The notes below the pieces were generated by a model that was not told the origin of the DNA, searched no databases, and was given only the letters and a program-made list of their open reading frames with translations. The position numbers and the translations under genes were made by a program. From NCBI RefSeq assembly GCF_054482595.1, contig NZ_CM137008.1: a stretch of 64,000 bases of DNA, one strand, 5' to 3'. Shown here in pieces: positions 532 through 63,426 of the stretch. Each line of letters opens with the position of its first letter. Within the stretch, counting starts at the first letter, position 1.

Positions 532-772
532 TGTAAAGCATCCACAATAGAAGAAGGATGCCGCAGGTTTCATCAATATTACGCGATGATGAGAACCAGA
601 TGCGACGTTGGCCGGCAGGTCTTCGGGCTTGGAGGGGTATCTAAGATACTAAGAGATGATGACTTCCCACCGAATGGCAGTGTCCGCATAACGCAATCAT
701 CGCACCTTTCCTTACCGCTGCGCGTCAGCTCCAGATTCGCACTGGATTCCCTATTAACTCACAGGACCGGCA
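532..772 (-). promoter_or_regulatory. btuB 5' leader containing the cobalamin (AdoCbl) riboswitch
   Basis: Minus-strand sequence upstream of the btuB ATG reads as the btuB leader (GCCGGTCCTGTGAGTTAATAGGGAATCCAGTGCGAATCTGGAGCTGACGCGCAGCGGTAAGGAAAGGTGCGATGATTGCG...). Extent approximate. Confidence 0.8.
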
Positions 773-899
773 AGTGGATGCTACAGGTTGTAACAAGTTA
801 CTGTCCAGACGTAGCTCACAAATAGGAATTCATCAAGATCTGGACATCTGATGAGCAATCCCTACAATCGCCGCGTACTTTAATTTTTCAGGATACATC

Positions 900-2000
900 A
901 TGACCCCCGAACACCTTCCAACAGAACAGTATGAAGCGCAGTTAGCCGAAAAAGTGGTACGTTTGCAAAGTATGATGGCACCGTTTTCTGACCTGGTTCC
1001 GGAAGTGTTTCGCTCGCCGGTCAGTCATTACCGGATGCGTGCGGAGTTCCGCATCTGGCACGATGGCGATGACCTGTACCACATCATTTTCGATCAACAA
1101 ACCAAAAGCCGTATCCGGGTGGATAGCTTCCCCGCCGCCAGTGAACTCATCAACCAGTTGATGACGGCGATGATTGCGGGTGTGCGTAATAATCCCATTC
1201 TGCGCCACAAGTTGTTCCAGATTGATTACCTCACCACGCTGAGTAATCAGGCGGTGGTTTCCTTGCTGTACCATAAAAAGCTGGATGATGAGTGGCGTCA
1301 GGAAGCGGAAGCCCTGCGCGATGCACTGCGAGCACAGAATCTGAATGTGCATCTGATTGGTCGGGCAACGAAAACCAAAATCGCGCTGGATCAAGATTAC
1401 ATCGACGAACGTCTGCCGGTCGCAGGGAAAGAGATGATCTACCGTCAGGTAGAAAACAGCTTTACCCAGCCGAACGCGGCGATGAATATTCAGATGCTGG
1501 AATGGGCGCTGGACGTAACCAAAGGCTCAAAAGGCGATTTACTGGAGCTGTACTGCGGCAACGGTAACTTCTCATTAGCCCTGGCGCGCAATTTTGATCG
1601 GGTATTAGCCACCGAAATCGCCAAGCCGTCAGTCGCTGCCGCGCAATACAATATTGCCGCTAACCATATTGATAACGTACAAATTATTCGTATGGCGGCA
1701 GAAGAATTTACTCAGGCGATGAATGGCGTGCGCGAGTTTAACCGCCTGCAAGGGATCGACTTAAAGAGTTATCAGTGCGAAACCATTTTTGTCGACCCAC
1801 CGCGCAGCGGTCTGGACAGTGAAACCGAGAAAATGGTGCAGGCGTATCCACGTATTCTGTATATCTCCTGCAATCCGGAAACGTTATGCAAGAATCTGGA
1901 AACATTAAGCCAGACGCACAAGGTCGAACGCCTGGCTCTGTTTGATCAGTTCCCCTACACGCACCATATGGAGTGCGGCGTATTACTGACCGCGAAGTAA
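900..2000 (+). CDS. trmA: tRNA (uracil54-C5)-methyltransferase TrmA
   Basis: 366 aa [35 protein letters not shown]...; SAM-methyltransferase motifs; synteny btuB-trmA-yijD-fabR. Confidence 0.95.
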
Positions 2001-2005
2001 AACCC

Positions 2006-2032
2006 ATGCCGGATGCGCCAGCATCCGGCATG
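2006..2032. terminator. Bidirectional intrinsic terminator between convergent trmA and yijD
   Basis: Hairpin atgccggatgcgccagcatccggcat immediately after the trmA stop. Confidence 0.6.
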
Positions 2033-2039
2033 ATACCGA

Positions 2040-2399
2040 TTACTCAGCAACTTCCTGCTTACGGTTACGCATCTTCGCGCCAATCCAGAACACCATAATG
2101 ACGGAGAGTACTGCCGGGAAGAAGTTAGAGCCGATATCCGGATATTCCGCACGAACTACCGTGCTGTACAGCAGTACGCCGAGAATAAAACAGGCAGCTG
2201 CCAGACCCGGCAAGCCTACCGGCATGGTGCGATTAAGATAACGTTGATGCAGGCAGTAAACCGTCAGCACCAGGGAAATAATCGGGAATACAGAAAATGG
2301 CACAATGGAGCTAAACAGCGCTGCGAAAGTACCATTAATCGATAAGCCAGCAACCAACGCCAGCAGCAGCGTACCTCTATCTTGATTTGCTTGTTTCAT
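2040..2399 (-). CDS. yijD: Inner membrane protein YijD (DUF1422)
   Basis: 119 aa hydrophobic [33 protein letters not shown]...; 1-nt overlap (TAATG) with fabR stop. Confidence 0.9.
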
Positions 2400-3046
2400 T
2401 ACTCGTCCTTCACATTTCCCGGAATAATTGCGGTTTTCTCTTGTTCACGGCGATACCAGTAATAAGCCCCTTTCGAAATCATTCGCAGTTGCAGTACCAG
2501 TCGCTCTTCTAATTGCCGACGTTGTTCGACGCCGACGTCCAACGCCTCGGCACCCGCACTGAAGACAATTGTCACCATTGCTTCGGCTTGCGCTTCAGTA
2601 AACGCACGCGGCATATGGTTTTCGAGTTCCAGATAGTCCGCAAGTTCCGCAATGAAGTGCTGAATTTCACGCGCAACGGCGGCACGAAACGCAGCGGAGG
2701 TGCCGGAGCGTTCCCGCAATAATAACCGGAAGGCGTTAGGATTATTACCGATGAACTCCATAAATGTGGAGACCGAGGTGCGGATCACACTCCCGCCTTT
2801 GGCGATACGCTGACGCGCCTGGCGCATGAGTTGGCGTAGCATTAAACCGCTCTCATCAACCATGGTCAGACCCAGTTCGTCTACGTCGCGGAAATGCCGA
2901 TAAAAAGAGGTGGGAGCAATGCCCGCTTCACGCGCCACTTCACGCAAACTCAAGCTGGCGAAGCTGCGTTCAGCACTTAATTGGCTAAATGCGGCTTCCA
3001 CCAGCGAACGGCGGGTTTTTTCTTTTTGTTGCGCTCTTACGCCCAT
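2399..3046 (-). CDS. fabR: TetR-family repressor of unsaturated fatty acid biosynthesis FabR
   Basis: Conserved protein starts [29 protein letters not shown]...; track ORF extends to 3142 but the conserved start is the internal Met (coordinate 3046). Confidence 0.9.
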
Positions 3047-3152
3047 CACGATGTCTGAATCCTTGCCAAAAGTACTGCTGGCACTATACCAGAGAATGAA
3101 CATACTGGATTGCTCCAGTATTGTGAATGAACGGTAACGCAATAAAACATAT

Positions 3153-4469
3153 TTACTGCAATTCTTTGGCCGGTTCTTTTACGTACAACAACGCCAACAT
3201 CGACAGCAACGTGCCTCCACCCAGATACCACGCCGGAGCCGTCAAACTATCCAGCAACACGATGGATTGCGTAGCGAAATATTGAGCAAAACCGCCAAAG
3301 ATTGCCACACCAATGCTATAAACCAGCGCAAAACCCAATGCCCGAATCCGTTTCGGCAACAGTTCAGAGATCAACAACATCACTGGCACACCGCCAAGCG
3401 TGGTAAAGCTGACCATCACGAAAACCACCGTCAGCAACATGCCAGGGCTTGGGTAATTCACCAACAGCCAGAATGACGGCCAGCTACAGATCAGCACCAT
3501 CACACGGGAGATTAAAATCAGCTTTTTACGCCCGACCGAATCGCACAACATCCCCACAAGCAGCGCACCCACAAACGTAATAACGCCCGCCAGTAACATC
3601 GCTGCATGAGAATAATGTTGAGGCATCGCCAGATACTTCGCCGCCCAGGTGCCGTAATAAAAGAGGGAGATATAGGTTGCGACCGTGCTACCAATAGCGA
3701 GTAAAACGCCATTAACGATAGTCGCCTTATGTTGCAGGAGCAGAGAAAACGCGCTTTCGCTGGTAGCAGCTTTTTTATTGCGCACAGGCTCAGGTACGTC
3801 ATTTTCCAGACTCAAACGCAACCAACAGCCGACAGGCGCTAATAACACGCCAATAAAAAACGGCACACGCCAGCCCCATTCAGCCATGACGGTTTCTGAA
3901 CCGGTCGCAAAGGGCAGCCATGCACTTAAACCTAAAGCGACAACACCTCCAAAAGTTGTTGCCAGGCCTTGAGTCGCCAGTGACCAACTGCTGTAAAAAC
4001 CGCGACGATTTGCCGGAGCTGACTCCACCAGTAGCGACATTGAAGCCCCAACTTCACCGCCTGCTGCAACACCCTGAATCAAACGAGCAAGTACCAGAGT
4101 TGCCGTTCCCCAATAGCCCGCCGTCGCATACGTCGGCGCAATGCCAATCATCAACGTGCCGAGGCTCATCAGGGCAATAGTGAACACCATCGCGGGTTTG
4201 CGTCCGAAACGATCGGCCCAGGCCCCGACGATAATTCCACCAAGCGGGCGCATAAAAAAACTCACGCCAAACGTTGCAAATGCCAGTAACAGCGCGACAT
4301 TGTGATCAGCGCTGGGTGGGAAGAAAAGTGTACTGATATAGACCACAAAAAAGTTGTAAACGCCAAAATCAAACAATTCGAGCGCATTGCCAAACGCCGA
4401 GGCAAAAATCACCCGCCTGCCGCTGGGCTTTTTCTTCACACTCACGGTTTCATTTACGATCGCCGTCAT
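3153..4469 (-). CDS. MFS transporter, metabolite:H+ symporter (MHS) family-like; substrate unknown
   Basis: 438 aa, many predicted TM segments, MFS signature region GxxxDRFGRK ([12 protein letters not shown]). Lies in a segment I do not recall between fabR and sthA in K-12. Confidence 0.8.
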
Positions 4470-4511
4470 TCCATGTTCCTTGCCAAAAAGTGTTGTTGTG
4501 TGTTGTTTTAT

Positions 4512-5678
4512 TTATTGCAGCCAGGCTTCTACCAGTGCGCCCCAGTAGCTGCTTGCCGGGACCAGACTTGCATCGTTGAAGTCGTAACCCGGGTTATGCA
4601 CCATGCAGGAACCTTCCCCGACATCGCCATTACCGAATAACAGGAAACCGCCTTTGGGTTGGGCTTCCAGCATGAAAGAGAAATCTTCACTGCCCATCAG
4701 AGGCTTGATGCCAAACTCGGCCAGCTCTTCACCAAACGTTTTACACGCCACCTGCCAGGCGAAGCGCGCCATCTCCTCGTCATTCACTAATACCGGTGTA
4801 CCGTTAACATGCGTAACCTCAGCCGTAGCACCAAAGCTGGCAGCCAGGGCTTGTGCCAGAGCAGGAATACGGGTCAGAAGAAGTTGTCGGGTATCGCGGC
4901 TAAGAGAGCGGACGCTGATTTTCATCTCAGCACTGTCAGGAATGACGTTAGCCGCCTCACCCGCAACAATGCTGCCGACGGTAATTACCGCCGCTTCCAG
5001 CGGATCGACATTGCGCGACACAATGCTTTGTAATGCGGTGGTGATATGTGCCGCGACCAGCACCGGATCGATGGCTTTGTGCGGGATCGCACCGTGTCCG
5101 CCACAACCACGAACTGTAATATGGAACTGATCCATTGACGCCATCAGTGCCCCTGGCTGGAAATAAAACTTACCCACCGGCAGACCGGGCATGTTATGCA
5201 TGCCGAAAATGACATCGCAGGGGAAATGATCAAAAAGCCCCTCTTTAACCATGATCTCACCGCCATTAATCATCTCTTCCGCAGGCTGGAAGATAAGACG
5301 TAACGTGCCGTTAAAACGGCGGGTTTCGGCAAAATAACGCGCGGCCCCCAGCAGTATGGTGGTATGCCCGTCATGCCCGCAGGCGTGCATTAAACCAGGA
5401 TGTTTACTGGCCCAGAGCTTGCCACTATTTTCATAAATCGGCAGCGCATCCATATCCGCCCGCAGGCCAATACTTTTCTCTCCGTCGCCCACTTTTAACG
5501 TGGCCACTATCCCCGTCGTCGCCAGTCCTTGCTCTACTTCATAGCCCCACTGACGCAGCTTTTCCGCAACCAAAGCACTGGTTTTAAATTCTTGTAATCC
5601 CAGCTCCGGGTTTTCGTGGATCTGATGGCGGATCTCACGCAGTTCTTCCTCAAACCCTCGAATATAGTGTTCGATCAT
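4512..5678 (-). CDS. M20D-family amidohydrolase (hippurate hydrolase / N-acyl-amino acid amidohydrolase-like)
   Basis: 388 aa with HACGHDGH metal-binding motif typical of peptidase M20D (AbgA/HipO/ILR1 type); co-oriented with the MFS gene, 42 bp apart. Confidence 0.8.
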   Translation of the reverse strand: MIEHYIRGFEEELREIRHQIHENPELGLQEFKTSALVAEKLRQWGYEVEQGLATTGIVATLKVGDGEKSIGLRADMDALPIYENSGKLWASKHPGLMHACGHDGHTTILLGAARYFAETRRFNGTLRLIFQPAEEMINGGEIMVKEGLFDHFPCDVIFGMHNMPGLPVGKFYFQPGALMASMDQFHITVRGCGGHGAIPHKAIDPVLVAAHITTALQSIVSRNVDPLEAAVITVGSIVAGEAANVIPDSAEMKISVRSLSRDTRQLLLTRIPALAQALAASFGATAEVTHVNGTPVLVNDEEMARFAWQVACKTFGEELAEFGIKPLMGSEDFSFMLEAQPKGGFLLFGNGDVGEGSCMVHNPGYDFNDASLVPASSYWGALVEAWLQ

Positions 5679-8403: not shown

Positions 8404-8516
8404 GAAACGGAGCGGCACCTCTTTTAACCCTTGAAGTCACTGCCCGTTTCGAGAGTTTCTCAACTCGAATAACTAAAGCCAACGTGAACTTTTGCGGATC
8501 TCCAGGATCCGCTTTT
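8404..8516 (+). ncRNA. oxyS: OxyS small regulatory RNA
   Basis: Sequence GAAACGGAGCGGCACCTCTTTTAACCCTTGAAGTCACTGCCCGTTTCGAGAGTTTCTCAACTCGAATAACTAAAGCCAACGTGAACTTTTGCGGATCTCCAGGATCCGC followed by T-run (intrinsic terminator). Confidence 0.93.
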
Positions 8517-18233: not shown

Positions 18234-19085
18234 ATGTATCACGACGTCAGCTATCTGCTCTCCCGCCTGATCAACGGCCCGCTGTCCCTGCGCCAGATTT
18301 ACTTTGCCAGCAGTAACGGCCCGGTGCCCGATCTTGCGTATCAGGTCGATTTTCCACGGCTGGAAATTGTGCTGGAAGGTGAGTTTGTTGATACCGGCGC
18401 TGGAGCAACGTTAGTTCCCGGCGATGTGCTGTACGTTGCCGCTGGTGGCTGGAATTTTCCACAATGGCAAGCCCCCGCTACTACCTTTAGCGTGCTGTTT
18501 GGCAAACAGCAACTCGGCTTCAGCGTCGTGCAATGGGATGGCAAACAATATCAAAATCTGGCGAAGCAACACGTCGCCCGACGCGGCCCACGCATAGGTT
18601 CTTTTCTGCTACAAACGCTCAATGAAATGCAAATGCAGCCGCAGGAGCAGCAAACGGCAAGGCTTATCGTCGCCAGCCTGCTTAGCCACTGCCGCGATTT
18701 GCTTGGCAGCCAAATCCAGACCGCCTCACGCAGCCAGGCACTATTCGAAGCTATTCGCGATTATATCGACGAACGCTATGCCTCCGCGCTTACCCGCGAA
18801 TCTGTCGCACAGGCATTCTATATTTCACCAAACTATCTCTCGCACCTGTTTCAAAAAACGGGGGCCATTGGTTTTAACGAATACCTGAATCACACGCGAC
18901 TGGAGCACGCTAAGACGTTATTGAAAGGCTATGACCTGAAGGTAAAAGAAGTGGCGCACGCCTGCGGCTTTGTCGACAGCAACTACTTCTGCCGTCTGTT
19001 TCGTAAAAACACCGAACGCTCGCCGTCGGAATATCGCCGGCAGTACCACAGCCAACTGACAGAAAAACCGACTACTCCAGAATAA
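18234..19085 (+). CDS. yijO: AraC-family transcriptional regulator YijO
   Basis: 283 aa MYHDVSYLLSRLINGPLSLRQIYFASSNGPV...; C-terminal AraC HTH (NYLSHLFQKTG...). Confidence 0.9.
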   Translation: MYHDVSYLLSRLINGPLSLRQIYFASSNGPVPDLAYQVDFPRLEIVLEGEFVDTGAGATLVPGDVLYVAAGGWNFPQWQAPATTFSVLFGKQQLGFSVVQWDGKQYQNLAKQHVARRGPRIGSFLLQTLNEMQMQPQEQQTARLIVASLLSHCRDLLGSQIQTASRSQALFEAIRDYIDERYASALTRESVAQAFYISPNYLSHLFQKTGAIGFNEYLNHTRLEHAKTLLKGYDLKVKEVAHACGFVDSNYFCRLFRKNTERSPSEYRRQYHSQLTEKPTTPE

Positions 19086-19413
19086 GATGGGTTTGCTGCG
19101 GCGCAGAAAGCACTTTGCGCACCGCGCTCATTACCCGCTGCGGCTCACGCAGGAATGCGTAGATGCTGCATTGCACATAGCGGCAATGTTCAAATCGCTC
19201 GGCACCGGCAAGCTCGATATCCGTAATCAACAGAGCAACATCCGCCCGACGGATATCCTCGTCCGCTAAACGATTCTCCGTTCCCAGCGCGCCCTGAGTT
19301 TCAATGCTGACTCCCCACTTCTCTAACAGGCACAACTTTTCCAGCCGTTCCGCCGCCATATATGTATGCGCCACGCCGCTTACGCAGGCGGTTACTGCCA
19401 CCAGGTATGCCAT
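19072..19413 (-). CDS. frwD: PTS fructose-like EIIB component FrwD
   Basis: 113 aa MAYLVAVTACVSGVAHTYMAAERLEKL... (PTS EIIB fold, Cys phosphorylation site). Confidence 0.9.
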   Translation of the reverse strand: MAYLVAVTACVSGVAHTYMAAERLEKLCLLEKWGVSIETQGALGTENRLADEDIRRADVALLITDIELAGAERFEHCRYVQCSIYAFLREPQRVMSAVRKVLSAPQQTHLILE

Positions 19414-19414
19414 T

Positions 19415-20293
19415 TTAACCTCCCACGGTAACCTGAAATCCGGCCCGTTCTGCCATTTCGCGCATCGTTGTCACATCGGCTGACGACGGCGCAGGCACCT
19501 CTTTCATCGACCATGTTTTCCCCAGCAGGCGGTATTTCGGTTCGCCGTACTGATGAAACGGTAACAGATGGATCTGCCTGATTTTCAGCGGGATCAGTAC
19601 ATCCAGCGCCTGCTGCATATTCTCCCGGCTGAGCGTGAAACCAGGGATCAGCGGTAAACGCGGGATCACGTTGACGCCCTCACTCACCAGCAAACGCAGA
19701 TTCTCCAGCACGCGTGGCAGGTTCATCTTCACCACATCCCGCGCCTGAGTCGCGTCCATAATTTTTAAATCGAACAACACTTCATCGCACAATTTCGCCA
19801 GCGGTAACAGCTTGCTGGCTGGCGCGTCTCCGGCAGTTTCAATGGCGCATGACACGCCCCACAACCGCAGCCGCTGTAAAAAACGGGTAGCAAACTCCGC
19901 CTGCATTAACACTTCGCCGCCAGAAAGCGTGACGCCGCCGCCGGACGTGCGAAAGAAAATGTCATCTTTCATCACTTCCCGTTCCAGCGCGTCAAGGCTG
20001 ATATCGCGACCAATCCGTTCAAACGCCCCGGAGGGGCATTCATCCGCATCACGCAAACATTTCGCACAGTGCAGACATTTCGCCTCTCTGCGTACCGTCT
20101 GGATTTTGCCGGAGATCGACTCCGGATTAGCACACCACGGGCAAAGATGCGGACAGCCTTTAAAAAAGACCACCGTACGAATGCCCTCGCCGTCATTCAG
20201 TGAATAACGCTGAATGTTGAAAATGCGCGCCACATCATTGCGGCGCGTTTCCACAACGTTACAGCTGATGCGCTGTCCGACGGATGATGTCAT
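19415..20293 (-). CDS. pflC: Glycyl-radical enzyme activating protein PflC (radical SAM)
   Basis: Conserved start MTSSVGQRISCNVVETRR...; CxxxCxxC radical-SAM motif (GCPHLCPWCANPES). Track ORF extended 23 codons. Confidence 0.9.
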   Translation of the reverse strand: MTSSVGQRISCNVVETRRNDVARIFNIQRYSLNDGEGIRTVVFFKGCPHLCPWCANPESISGKIQTVRREAKCLHCAKCLRDADECPSGAFERIGRDISLDALEREVMKDDIFFRTSGGGVTLSGGEVLMQAEFATRFLQRLRLWGVSCAIETAGDAPASKLLPLAKLCDEVLFDLKIMDATQARDVVKMNLPRVLENLRLLVSEGVNVIPRLPLIPGFTLSRENMQQALDVLIPLKIRQIHLLPFHQYGEPKYRLLGKTWSMKEVPAPSSADVTTMREMAERAGFQVTVGG

Positions 20294-22556
20294 CCTGGAT
20301 CTCCTTCGACAGTTCGACAAAGAAGGCGCTGTATCCGGCAACGCGCACCACCAGCCCGGCATAATCTTGTGGGCGCTGTTGCGCTTCCCGCAACGTGTCG
20401 GCGTTCACCACGTTAAACTGAATATGCTGCAACTTAAGCTGGGTAAACGCCCGTAAGAAGTCGGCCAGTTTGCGTAATCCCGCTTCACCTTCCAGGGTCG
20501 CCGGAGTGAATTTCACGTTCAGCAACGTACCGTTAGACAGCAGCGTATTATCGAGCTTACTGACTGACTTCAGTACCGCTGTTGGCCCTTGTGCGTCCTG
20601 GCCCAGCATGGGTGACAAGCCGCCGTCTGCCAGTTGTTCCCCGGCAAAACGACCGTCTGGCGTCGCACCAACCACCGATCCCAACGGGACGTGAGCAGAA
20701 ACGGTATACGATCCCGGCGTGAAGTAACCGCCGCGCGGGTTCTGGTATTTTTCCACTTCTTTGCAGTAGTGGCGCAACAGTTCGGCGCTAATGTTATCCA
20801 CCTCGTCGATATCGTTACCGTATTTCTCAAAGCGGTTAATTAAGCGAGCGCGGACTTTTTCGCCTTCTGGCGTTGCAAAGTTGGCTTTTAATACCGACAG
20901 CAATTCGTCAAAACTTAAACGCTGTTGATCAAAAACCATCCCTTTCAACGCATGGAGAGAATCGCTCAGGTTGGCGATACCAATTCCCTGTACGCCGGAG
21001 AAGTTATAACGCGCGCCGCCATCGGTAATATCGCGACCTTTTTCCAGACAATCGCTGATAAAAGACGAGAGCAGCGGTACAGGTGCCCAGTCGCGATGGC
21101 CGATATCACAAATATTGCTGCCCTCAACCATCAGGGTGATGTAGTGGCTGATCTTGGCGCGGATCTGCTCCAGTAAACCTTCATAAGTCAGCGCAGCATT
21201 GCCTTCATTTTCATGCAGGCAGATTTCCATCACTTTCAGCAGATTAAACATCGCGATGTCATGCAAGCCGTAGGTTCTGCCGGGAATAGATAATTCCACA
21301 CAGCCCACTACGGAATAGTCGCGCGCATCTTCCAGCGAAACGCCACGGTTGAGGAACGCTGGCACCACCACTTCATCGTTAAAGATTTGCGGAATACCGG
21401 TGCCGAGGCGAATGGTTTCTGCGGTTTTCATCAGGAACGGCGTGTCGATCAAGGCGTTAGTGCGCACCCCTAGGTTCGGTTGCGGTAATTGTACGCTTTG
21501 ATAGGCATCGAGGCAGAGGAACGAAAGCACGTTCACCGCGCTACGTCCGTTCTCGGTTAACCCGCCGAGCAGTGCGGTATAGCCAGTCGGGAAACCTGCG
21601 AAATAACGCGCGCTGCTGGTGGAGCGCAACAGCACAATGTCGTTGCATTTCACCCATAAAGATTCGAGCAGTTCTTTCAGGAACGCCGGATCTTCGCCCT
21701 GGGTTAAAGATGCCTGATAGAACGGCAACATATACTGGTCGAAGCGCCCTAAAGACAGCGAACTGGCGTTGGATTCGTATTGCAGAATGATGTTCATGTA
21801 CCAGAATAACTGGCACGCCTGCCAGAACGTCTGCGGCTTATGTTCGGCGTTATGGCGGGAGATCTCCGCAATAGTCAGCAGTTCTTCGCGACGCTGGGCA
21901 TCAGTGCAGCTTGCCGCCATCGTTTCCGCCAGTTCGGCGTAACGCAAAATGTGTTTCTGCGAGGCTTCGAGCAGTAACAGCGCTGCCTGATAAAAGTGAT
22001 TCTCCGGCTGTTGCTGACAATGTTGCTGCATTTGCGCTACCAGCTCACCCAGCCCGTGATTCAGCAGGCGCGGGTAATCAATAATAATGTGCCCCTGGCC
22101 TTTATCCGTCTGGTTGATGCTGAAAATCTGCGTGCTGGTCGCGGCTTTTACTTCATCCGTCATCTGCCCGTTGATGAAATCTTTCATCGAACGTTTTTCC
22201 CAGTACGGGAACAACTCTTCACGGTAGATACGTTTATCTTCTTCGCTGATAGCAAAGCGGTCCTGCGGACGCGTCGGGAACTGGTCCAACTCTTTCAGCA
22301 ACCAGTAAGGGTCCATTTCCGGCGACATAATCCCGGCGCGCGGTTTCACCGTGCGGTTACCGGCAATCAGTTCTTCATCACGAATCGAAATTTCAACATG
22401 TTCAAGGATATACGCTGTTGCTTTCGCCCGGCGCAATATCACCGGTTCGCCTTCGGTTTGCCGATGGCTGGCGGTATAAAGCAGCGCACGCTCCAGCGAG
22501 ATTTCACGGGTATTGGCAAACAGTGCAGTTTTGAGGCGAGAGATACGATTCGTCAT
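20259..22556 (-). CDS. pflD: Pyruvate formate-lyase-like glycyl radical enzyme PflD
   Basis: 765 aa MTNRISRLKTALFANTREISLERALLYTASHRQ...; glycyl-radical motif RVAGYSA near C-terminus. Confidence 0.93.
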   Translation of the reverse strand: MTNRISRLKTALFANTREISLERALLYTASHRQTEGEPVILRRAKATAYILEHVEISIRDEELIAGNRTVKPRAGIMSPEMDPYWLLKELDQFPTRPQDRFAISEEDKRIYREELFPYWEKRSMKDFINGQMTDEVKAATSTQIFSINQTDKGQGHIIIDYPRLLNHGLGELVAQMQQHCQQQPENHFYQAALLLLEASQKHILRYAELAETMAASCTDAQRREELLTIAEISRHNAEHKPQTFWQACQLFWYMNIILQYESNASSLSLGRFDQYMLPFYQASLTQGEDPAFLKELLESLWVKCNDIVLLRSTSSARYFAGFPTGYTALLGGLTENGRSAVNVLSFLCLDAYQSVQLPQPNLGVRTNALIDTPFLMKTAETIRLGTGIPQIFNDEVVVPAFLNRGVSLEDARDYSVVGCVELSIPGRTYGLHDIAMFNLLKVMEICLHENEGNAALTYEGLLEQIRAKISHYITLMVEGSNICDIGHRDWAPVPLLSSFISDCLEKGRDITDGGARYNFSGVQGIGIANLSDSLHALKGMVFDQQRLSFDELLSVLKANFATPEGEKVRARLINRFEKYGNDIDEVDNISAELLRHYCKEVEKYQNPRGGYFTPGSYTVSAHVPLGSVVGATPDGRFAGEQLADGGLSPMLGQDAQGPTAVLKSVSKLDNTLLSNGTLLNVKFTPATLEGEAGLRKLADFLRAFTQLKLQHIQFNVVNADTLREAQQRPQDYAGLVVRVAGYSAFFVELSKEIQDDIIRRTAHQL

Positions 22557-22606
22557 GAGGAACTCCTGTGGGAAAGCGAACCCGCCCTTGCGAGCGGGAG
22601 AAGAAC

Positions 22607-24021: not shown

Positions 24022-24329
24022 AAGCTGCTCCCGGGCTTGCGAAAGCCCATGTCCATATTTTTGATGGAGGAAACAATAGGCAATCGCAGGCGGAGCAAAC
24101 AGTGGATAAAAAGGCCATTTACTGGACTTTTGTAATATCAGTACAAAAATGCGATCCGCCTCATAACTTGCGATAATCCGGAAGCATGCCGCAAAACGGC
24201 GTCTTGTGAGACGCGTCGCAAATTGACGGTTACATTACATTTGTCCAGCTTTTGGCAGATTTGTCACATGGCAGGCCGTTGCCGTGCGCTCTTATCCTGT
24301 AAACAGAAAACCGTACCGGGAGAGAGGCA

Positions 24330-63325: not shown

Positions 63326-63426
63326 GCCATATGCGGCGCGAACGCCTTATCCGGCCTACAAAAGTTTGCAAATTCAATAAATTGCAGAATTCATGTAGGC
63401 CTGATAAGCGAAGCGCATCAGGCATT
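63326..63426. repeat. REP palindromic repeats
   Basis: gccatatgcggcgcgaacgccttatccggcctaca ... gtaggcctgataagcgaagcgcatcaggcatt. Confidence 0.7.

Follow-up and report, generated by a model that had tools for sequence, protein, structure and literature searches.

Several lines of evidence strongly support initiation of pflC within the 3' end of the upstream gene pflD, at the ATG at position 20293 of the window (the whole 64,000-nucleotide stretch analysed, from contig NZ_CM137008.1 of RefSeq assembly GCF_054482595.1). The two coding sequences overlap by 35 nt, and a second overlap, of 14 nt, lies between the convergent genes yijO and frwD. Both overlaps belong to the standard annotation of E. 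coli and are ordinary gene packing, not a new kind of element. Our account combines an embedded pflC start that has been selected, a tie between pflC and ribosome traffic on pflD that we infer, and a compact convergent end formed by yijO and frwD. We assign this account as a whole a probability of roughly three in four.

A 4.7-kb query around both overlaps was 100% identical to E. coli strain XH990, and the same region was found in 5,394 of 5,426 complete E. coli genomes. The gene order, ppc, eptC, yijO (+), frwD-pflC-pflD-frwB-frwC (-), and ptsA/ptsP (+), agrees with the PGAP annotation of XH990 and with b3947-b3956 of K-12 MG1655. Open reading frames, annotation, and Pfam domains together define the four genes considered here. 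pflD (20259..22556, minus strand; stop TAA at 20261..20259) encodes a 765-aa glycyl-radical enzyme with PFL-like and Gly_radical domains, and pflC (19415..20293, minus strand) encodes its 292-aa radical-SAM activase, with Radical_SAM and Fer4_12 domains. The PflC residues C47, C51, and C54, which form the CxxxCxxC cluster, are invariant across 61 orthologs; this motif and the Pfam domains identify the two products as a glycyl-radical enzyme and radical-SAM activase pair. frwD (19072..19413, minus strand; stop TAG at 19074..19072) encodes a 113-aa PTS IIB protein. Its ATG lies 1 nt past the pflC stop, and its Shine-Dalgarno (SD) sequence, GGAGG (19419..19423, minus strand), is contained in the 3' end of pflC. 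yijO (18234..19085, plus strand; stop TAA at 19083..19085) encodes a 283-aa AraC-family regulator. PflD has been reported to cleave 1,5-anhydromannitol-6-phosphate (Ma et al., JACS 2024, as cited in PMC12441222), and YbiW to cleave 1,5-anhydroglucitol-6-phosphate (as cited in PMC12441222). According to this 2025 review, both reactions follow PTS uptake, take place under strictly anaerobic conditions, and yield 1-deoxyfructose-6-phosphate.

The initial annotation had placed the pflD/pflC overlap at 20259-20293, and it is correct to the base: the open reading frames, the sequence, and the annotations of XH990 and K-12 all give a same-strand overlap at 20259..20293 (minus strand), with the pflC start ATG at 20293..20291 and an encoded N terminus of MTSSVG. 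The 35-nt and 14-nt overlaps are identical in XH990 RefSeq/PGAP and in K-12 MG1655 (b3951-b3954), and both are annotation facts rather than statistical patterns. The 35-nt segment holds pflD codons 755-765 plus the stop, together with pflC codons 1-11 and most of codon 12, the pflC frame being +1 relative to pflD. On the pflD side, it lies past residue 747, where the Gly_radical domain model stops, in a very conserved C terminus. The two genes are co-directional neighbours and the pflC start lies upstream of the pflD stop, which is the arrangement of coupled-type pairs. Neither a slippery site nor any other sign of a PflD-PflC fusion by +1 frameshifting was seen.

A same-strand overlap that reaches 30 nt or more often results from a wrongly called start site. 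Two in-frame GTG codons past the pflD stop could be the true pflC start if this were the case here. The first, at 20252..20254 (minus strand), lies 4 nt past the stop; the second, at 20231..20233 (minus strand), lies 25 nt past it, corresponds to V21, and would give a protein beginning M-ARIFNIQRY. Some observations are consistent with such a start. Namely, Firmicute PflC proteins carry only 5-10 residues ahead of the FNIQRY core, residues 1-20 of PflC are unconserved and predicted to be disordered, and E. coli and some of its relatives do have GTG or ATG downstream, at the V21 position in 13 of 51 loci and at 11 residues before the core in 17 of 51. To weigh these points, we turn to the orthologous loci.

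From a collection with one genome per species we took 80 loci with PflC relatives, and pflD, pflC, frwD, and yijO were placed in them by tblastn. The gammaproteobacterial set comprises 51 loci with intact, adjacent pflD and pflC genes, the window itself included, and covers Enterobacterales, Orbales, Pasteurellales, and Vibrionales. In 50 of these loci, the last 35 nt of pflD, stop included, begin with an ATG, although part of this conservation is a free by-product of the conserved Q-D-D motif of PflD. The sole exception is Vibrio hannami, which has ACG at this position but an ATG at -11, still within pflD. In all 51 loci the PflC core (FNIQRYS...) is in frame with the -35 position. This holds even though ten different distances separate the ATG from the core across the loci (23, 24, 26, 27, 29, 30, 32, 33, 40, and 41 codons), the frame having been kept by every indel. 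In the spacer between the pflD stop and the core, the pflC frame contains no stop codon in the 51 loci, compared with 18 and 51 stops in the two alternative frames, and it is stop-free even in AT-rich Gilliamella (34-39% GC).

In 21 of the 51 loci, there is no ATG, GTG, or TTG between the pflD stop and the core; initiation must therefore occur inside pflD in these species. A linker that remains in frame and free of stops over ten length classes also argues against a start past the pflD stop, as does the constraint on the SD and ATG within pflD, the most synonymously constrained part of the gene (see below). Neither downstream GTG is preceded by an SD. We rejected both as the main start, since the codon at 20254 is not conserved (17/51) and that at 20233 is a start codon in only 13/51; each may serve as a minor start in E. 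coli. It is thus very unlikely that the overlap is an annotation artefact. With a conserved start and ribosome-binding site (RBS), and with the downstream start missing from 21 loci, this is a genuine long overlap.

A start farther upstream is less credible still, to the point of being barely tenable. In this strain, the pflC frame extends without a stop as far upstream as 20404, and it offers an ATG at 20362 (a 104-nt overlap, giving a 315-aa open reading frame) and a TTG at 20320 (a 62-nt overlap), the latter found in most orthologs. Yet the ATG at 20362 is missing from most genera, and E. albertii, Entomohabitans, Necropsobacter, and V. harveyi have an in-frame stop between its position and the -35 ATG. 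The TTG, in turn, arises incidentally from the Phe-Val codons of pflD; it is lost where Phe746 is encoded by TTC (7/51), and no SD precedes it. The ATG at 20360..20362 (minus strand) had come up as the first start of the mechanical 315-aa open reading frame (19415..20362) and was discarded: besides its patchy distribution and the in-frame stops found elsewhere, it has no SD and, like the TTG, is incidental to pflD codons.

Initiation at 20293 gives PflC a variable N-terminal extension, predicted to be disordered, that spans residues 1-24 (20222..20293, minus strand) ahead of the FNIQRY core, as judged from the alignment and a structural model. Across loci, the extension is 23-41 aa long and is always in frame and stop-free. 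M1 aside, invariant or near-invariant columns of the 61-sequence PflC alignment begin only at F25. An AlphaFold2 model built on this alignment has a mean pLDDT of 89; in it, residues 1-16 fall below 50 and the first strand begins at residue 21. The Pfam domains of PflC start farther on, at residues 34-41. The initial annotation had called the start (MTSSVG) conserved and proposed N-terminal conservation across homologs as the check. This stands for the position of the codon (50/51) and fails for the peptide, in which residues 2-24 are variable. Within the overlap, the PflC sequence follows passively, in the +1 frame, from the constrained PflD C terminus, and a drifting linker comes after it. 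With an N-terminal leader that is unconstrained and disordered, selection appears to have acted on the location of the start and not on the peptide.

Independent evidence for an initiation region embedded in pflD comes from synonymous sites. The pflC SD, AAGGAG (20301..20306, minus strand), is separated from the ATG by 7 nt and is spelled by the pflD codons for K751 (AAG) and E752 (GAG), whereas the ATG itself is spelled by those for Asp755-Asp756 (G-ATG-AC). In a codon alignment of 51 pflD orthologs, Asp755 is GAT in 50 of 51 sequences, the highest value among 29 conserved Asp columns (mean, 58%; next highest, 86%). Lys751 is AAG in 43 of 45, compared with a mean of 33% and a maximum of 62% in the 16 other conserved Lys columns, and Glu752 is GAG in 47 of 51, the highest of 21 Glu columns (mean, 46%). 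Since the same tree underlies all columns, these rank comparisons control for relatedness. Normalised synonymous entropy, scanned along pflD in 397 windows, is lowest at the six codons 751-756, which comprise the SD, the spacer, and the ATG (0.366 vs. a gene mean of 0.754), and this minimum points to a translation-initiation region within pflD. In our account, this region is under selection across the Gammaproteobacteria. In Vibrio the SD is degenerate (AAAGAAA), and the pflC start is nonetheless inside pflD.

Firmicute orthologs, from Clostridium, Streptococcus, Enterococcus, and others, suggest how the embedded start may have arisen. Their PflD proteins are 57-62% identical, and in most loci pflC starts 2-24 nt past the pflD stop; the outliers are one 161-nt gap and one stop/start overlap of 1 or 4 nt. 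These loci have intergenic SDs, and a long overlap is excluded in them by stops in the pflC frame. The GATGA that comes with Q-D-D also turns up in 10 of 15 Firmicute loci, where it is not in frame with pflC. The simplest reading is start-codon capture in a gammaproteobacterial ancestor, in which an ATG already present in pflD would have become the pflC start and the former intergenic spacer the coding linker of PflC.

The initial annotation had further proposed that the overlap implies translational coupling, and coupling of pflC to pflD is plausible. pflC would be translated from the ATG at 20293 through the consensus SD spelled by Lys751-Glu752, and PflC synthesis would likely be linked to the passage of ribosomes along pflD. 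During elongation, these ribosomes would melt local RNA structure, yet they would also transiently occlude the pflC initiation site. A terminating pflD ribosome would stop 35 nt downstream and, from there, would leave the pflC initiation region immediately upstream of it uncovered. The expected outcome is a level of PflC that is sub-stoichiometric to its glycyl-radical enzyme; coupled or not, little PflC relative to PflD would be appropriate for an activase that acts catalytically. A search of the literature returned no published data on the dependence of pflC translation on that of pflD.

It is also possible, if somewhat unlikely, that pflC starts at 20293 and is not coupled at all. Ribosomes would then initiate de novo on the strong SD of pflC, and the overlap would be neutral, the ATG provided by the Q-D-D codons of pflD having simply replaced a lost ancestral start. 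The consensus AAGGAG at optimal spacing is what this alternative predicts, and the out-of-frame GATGA of Firmicute pflD shows that the codon was already at hand. RNA folding points the same way. In the minimum-free-energy fold, the SD pairs with CUUCUUUG and the AUG lies in a GGAUG/CAUCC hairpin, but these hairpins do no better than those of shuffled controls (z = -0.69 and -1.44), and a consensus fold of 49 sequences reaches -10.8 kcal/mol with a covariation term of only -1.1. The folds thus gave no significant support for a structure that would sequester the RBS. Moreover, a review of reporter work (PMC12548453) places the best coupling at -4 to +3 nt, states that overlap lowers efficiency more than spacing does, and reports a steep drop beyond an overlap of about 4 nt. 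The expectation from that review is inefficient coupling at -35 nt.

Other observations favour some dependence on pflD ribosomes. The -35 position has been kept while the length of the linker changed many times, suggesting that position matters. The degenerate SD of Vibrio, combined with a start that is still inside pflD, points in the same direction. Finally, the coat-lysis pairs of phages fr and MS2 are coupled at -38 and -50 nt, respectively, according to the same review (PMC12548453), so long overlaps can be productive. We retain an embedded start with a probable tie to pflD translation. A stronger version, in which the -35 start is a conserved stoichiometry device that gates PflC by pflD traffic, possibly with a parallel antisense feedback at yijO-frwD, is rather doubtful. 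If true, occlusion during elongation and back-scanning or unmasking at termination would set a low, fixed activase-to-enzyme ratio, and the pair would be a cellular, anciently conserved counterpart of the long-overlap coupling of the fr and MS2 coat-lysis genes.

The second overlap joins yijO (plus strand, ending at 19085) and frwD (minus strand, ending at 19072) tail to tail at 19072..19085. The coordinates given in the initial annotation are exact, in agreement with the open reading frames, the sequence, and the XH990 and K-12 annotations. The 14 nt comprise the last four codons and the stop of each gene. The overlapped codons lie beyond the HTH_18 domain of YijO, which ends at residue 270 of 283, and beyond the PTS_IIB domain of FrwD, which ends at residue 95 of 113; the YijO tail is variable (TTPE, VSPE, ASSE, or ANPK). 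Among the 31 loci with frwD directly after pflC and a convergent yijO, 22 have an overlap of exactly 14 nt. This class corresponds to the core Enterobacteriaceae: Escherichia, Citrobacter, Phytobacter, Pluralibacter, Lelliottia, Enterobacter, and their relatives. The other convergent loci have overlaps of 4, 8, or 17 nt or gaps of 5-136 nt (Hafnia, Rahnella, and Serratia), whereas Klebsiella and Raoultella have yijO at another site, in the orientation of the operon. The yijO/frwD overlap may be the compact tip of a convergent layout of long standing, with two unstructured C-terminal tails that run into each other. From the synteny that extends from Vibrio to Escherichia, it is a reasonable guess that YijO is the regulator of the frw-pfl operon.

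It had also been noted that this junction leaves no room for separate terminators, and our results bear this out. No intrinsic terminator-like site was predicted on either strand within about 100 nt of 19072..19085; on both strands, folds at the junction scored no better than shuffled sequences, and none of the stems has a U-tract after it. Lacking an intrinsic terminator in both directions, transcripts must read antisense into the partner gene, and the overlapping 3' ends would produce an excludon-type layout. Strand-specific RNA-seq had been suggested as the test, and the matter of transcript overlap is largely answered by a published list of 165 convergent excludons of E. coli MG1655, each present in at least 50% of 58 transcriptomes, that includes frwD-yijO (PMC12288877). 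A single promoter-like hit was seen at 19056..19083, below the chance expectation of 4.6.

Antisense interference between the regulator gene and the operon had been raised as a possibility as well. In such a functional excludon, transcription of the frw-pfl operon that continues into yijO, or the reverse, would lower expression of the partner, either through transcriptional interference or because RNase III cuts the 3' duplex, and would provide feedback between regulator and operon. The convergent arrangement kept from Vibrio to Escherichia, the exact 14-nt overlap in 22 loci, the lack of predicted intrinsic terminators, and the entry in the MG1655 excludome (at least 50% of 58 transcriptomes; PMC12288877) are all compatible with this model. 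Yet an excludon call is nearly automatic where coding sequences overlap, and it is silent on regulation or interference. The overlapped residues are non-domain tails, and the variable length of the overlap (4, 8, or 17 nt, or gaps of 5-136 nt), together with the relocation of yijO to the other strand in Klebsiella and Raoultella, indicates that the overlap is dispensable. We found no data on mutually exclusive expression or RNase III-dependent processing at frwD-yijO. We consider a functional excludon at this site unlikely, and a compact convergent end remains our reading of the yijO/frwD junction.

The direct importance of both overlaps is small, and the convergent frwD-yijO pair already appears in the published excludon list (PMC12288877). 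What this analysis adds is comparative proof that the long pflD/pflC overlap is genuine, together with the finding that nowhere in pflD is synonymous constraint stronger than at the embedded RBS. It serves as a quality check, given that an unusually long overlap turns out here not to be a start-site mis-annotation, and pflD/pflC could become a natural cellular test case for initiation at sites that lie tens of nucleotides within the preceding gene. Interest in the operon has grown since PflD was reported to act in the anaerobic catabolism of 1,5-anhydromannitol by gut bacteria (PMC12441222). Knowledge of the true PflC N terminus and of how PflC levels are controlled would help heterologous expression and operon engineering.

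How does this pair compare with known systems? Typical coupled pairs, which overlap by 4 or 1 nt through ATGA or TGATG (PMC12548453; Huber et al., PMC6728339), likewise lie on the same strand in one operon, with the downstream start ahead of the upstream stop and products that cooperate, as the enzyme and activase encoded by pflD and pflC do. The 35-nt overlap sets pflD/pflC apart from them. According to the review cited above (PMC12548453), the shared stretch is below 30 bp in more than 80% of overlapping pairs. The phage coat-lysis pairs of fr (-38 nt) and MS2 (-50 nt) are closer in geometry, for there too the terminating ribosome is just downstream of the RBS and does not occlude it. However, the lysis RBS in these phages is demonstrably locked in RNA structure and depends on termination of the coat gene, whereas pflC has a consensus SD and its predicted hairpins are not significant.

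For its part, frwD-yijO resembles the convergent excludons catalogued with ExcludonFinder (PMC12288877): the genes are convergent, their transcripts overlap, and the pair is in the MG1655 excludome. Classic excludons, in contrast, have long antisense overlaps and demonstrated reciprocal expression, while frwD-yijO is known by its layout only, and its overlap is not conserved outside the core Enterobacteriaceae. The nearest relatives of pflD/pflC in E. coli are ybiY-ybiW and pflB-pflA, which belong to the same families (a PFL-like/Gly_radical enzyme and a radical-SAM activase). In the paralogous ybiY-ybiW pair, the activase gene comes first and is separated from its partner by a 5-nt gap, so both the order and the lack of overlap differ from pflD-pflC. 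Taken with the gaps of 2-24 nt in Firmicute pflD-pflC, this 5-nt gap indicates that the embedded start is a gammaproteobacterial feature of this particular pair.

The start codon of pflC, which usually opens the last 35 nt of pflD, stop codon included (position -35), is not invariant. The Vibrio hannami locus (L046, 3911..3945) carries ACG rather than ATG at this position; the last 11 nt of pflD, again with the stop codon, open with an ATG instead (position -11), and this ATG exists because pflD ends in HEL* instead of HQL*. Both the -35 and the -11 ATGs are present in other Vibrio species and in Edwardsiella hoshinae (L049, L053, and L021); thus, Vibrio species may use the -11 ATG as the pflC start. 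In Escherichia coli K-12 (NC_000913.3), the PflC protein is recorded as NP_418387.3, a version number indicating that the record has been revised twice; these revisions may have moved the start site.

Two loci in which pflD looks disrupted were left out of the statistics. In Kluyvera genomosp. 3 YDC799 (L060, about 2520..4525), the pflD match covers residues 270 to 740 only, and an open pflC frame extends approximately 1.5 kb upstream. The pflD gene of Vibrio maritimus (L050, about 1682..3289) is truncated at residue 493. These pflD copies are likely pseudogenes or assembly errors.

Farther upstream in the operon, a 50-nt spacer separates the frwB stop codon (22607) from the pflD start codon (22556). 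This spacer contains, on the minus strand (22581..22598), a GC-rich hairpin, CCCGCTCGCAAGGGCGGG, with a weak T-rich tail after it. The hairpin lies within the operon and could act as an internal attenuator or as an mRNA-stabilizing stem. The divergent frwC (minus strand) and ptsA/ptsP (plus strand) genes are separated by a 308-bp intergenic region at 24022..24329, where the promoters and regulatory sites of both the frw-pfl operon and ptsA-fsaB-gldA presumably lie; a simple sigma-70 scan found no site in this interval. Elsewhere in the window, Rfam searches at the gathering threshold matched a cobalamin riboswitch (597..786, minus strand), the OxyS small RNA (sRNA) (8404..8513, plus), an L31 ribosomal-protein leader (43455..43507, minus), a ClpQY promoter element (48119..48176, plus), and the ES036 sRNA (63361..63402, plus), all five as expected for this region of the E. 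coli chromosome. No tRNA genes were found across the 64 kb.

At the pflC-frwD junction (19411..19423, minus strand), a single nucleotide lies between the pflC stop codon TAA (19417..19415) and the frwD ATG (19413..19411), and the frwD Shine-Dalgarno sequence, GGAGG, falls within the final pflC codons. Among the loci compared, only Escherichia has such a tight junction; the distance from the pflC stop codon to the frwD start is approximately 16 to 35 nt in Citrobacter, Enterobacter, and others. The tail-to-tail layout of yijO and frwD is not universal, since in Klebsiella, Raoultella, and relatives (L026, L029, L031, L034, and L035) a yijO homolog with about 54 to 55% identity lies 1 to 2 kb farther downstream on the operon strand and is not convergent with frwD.
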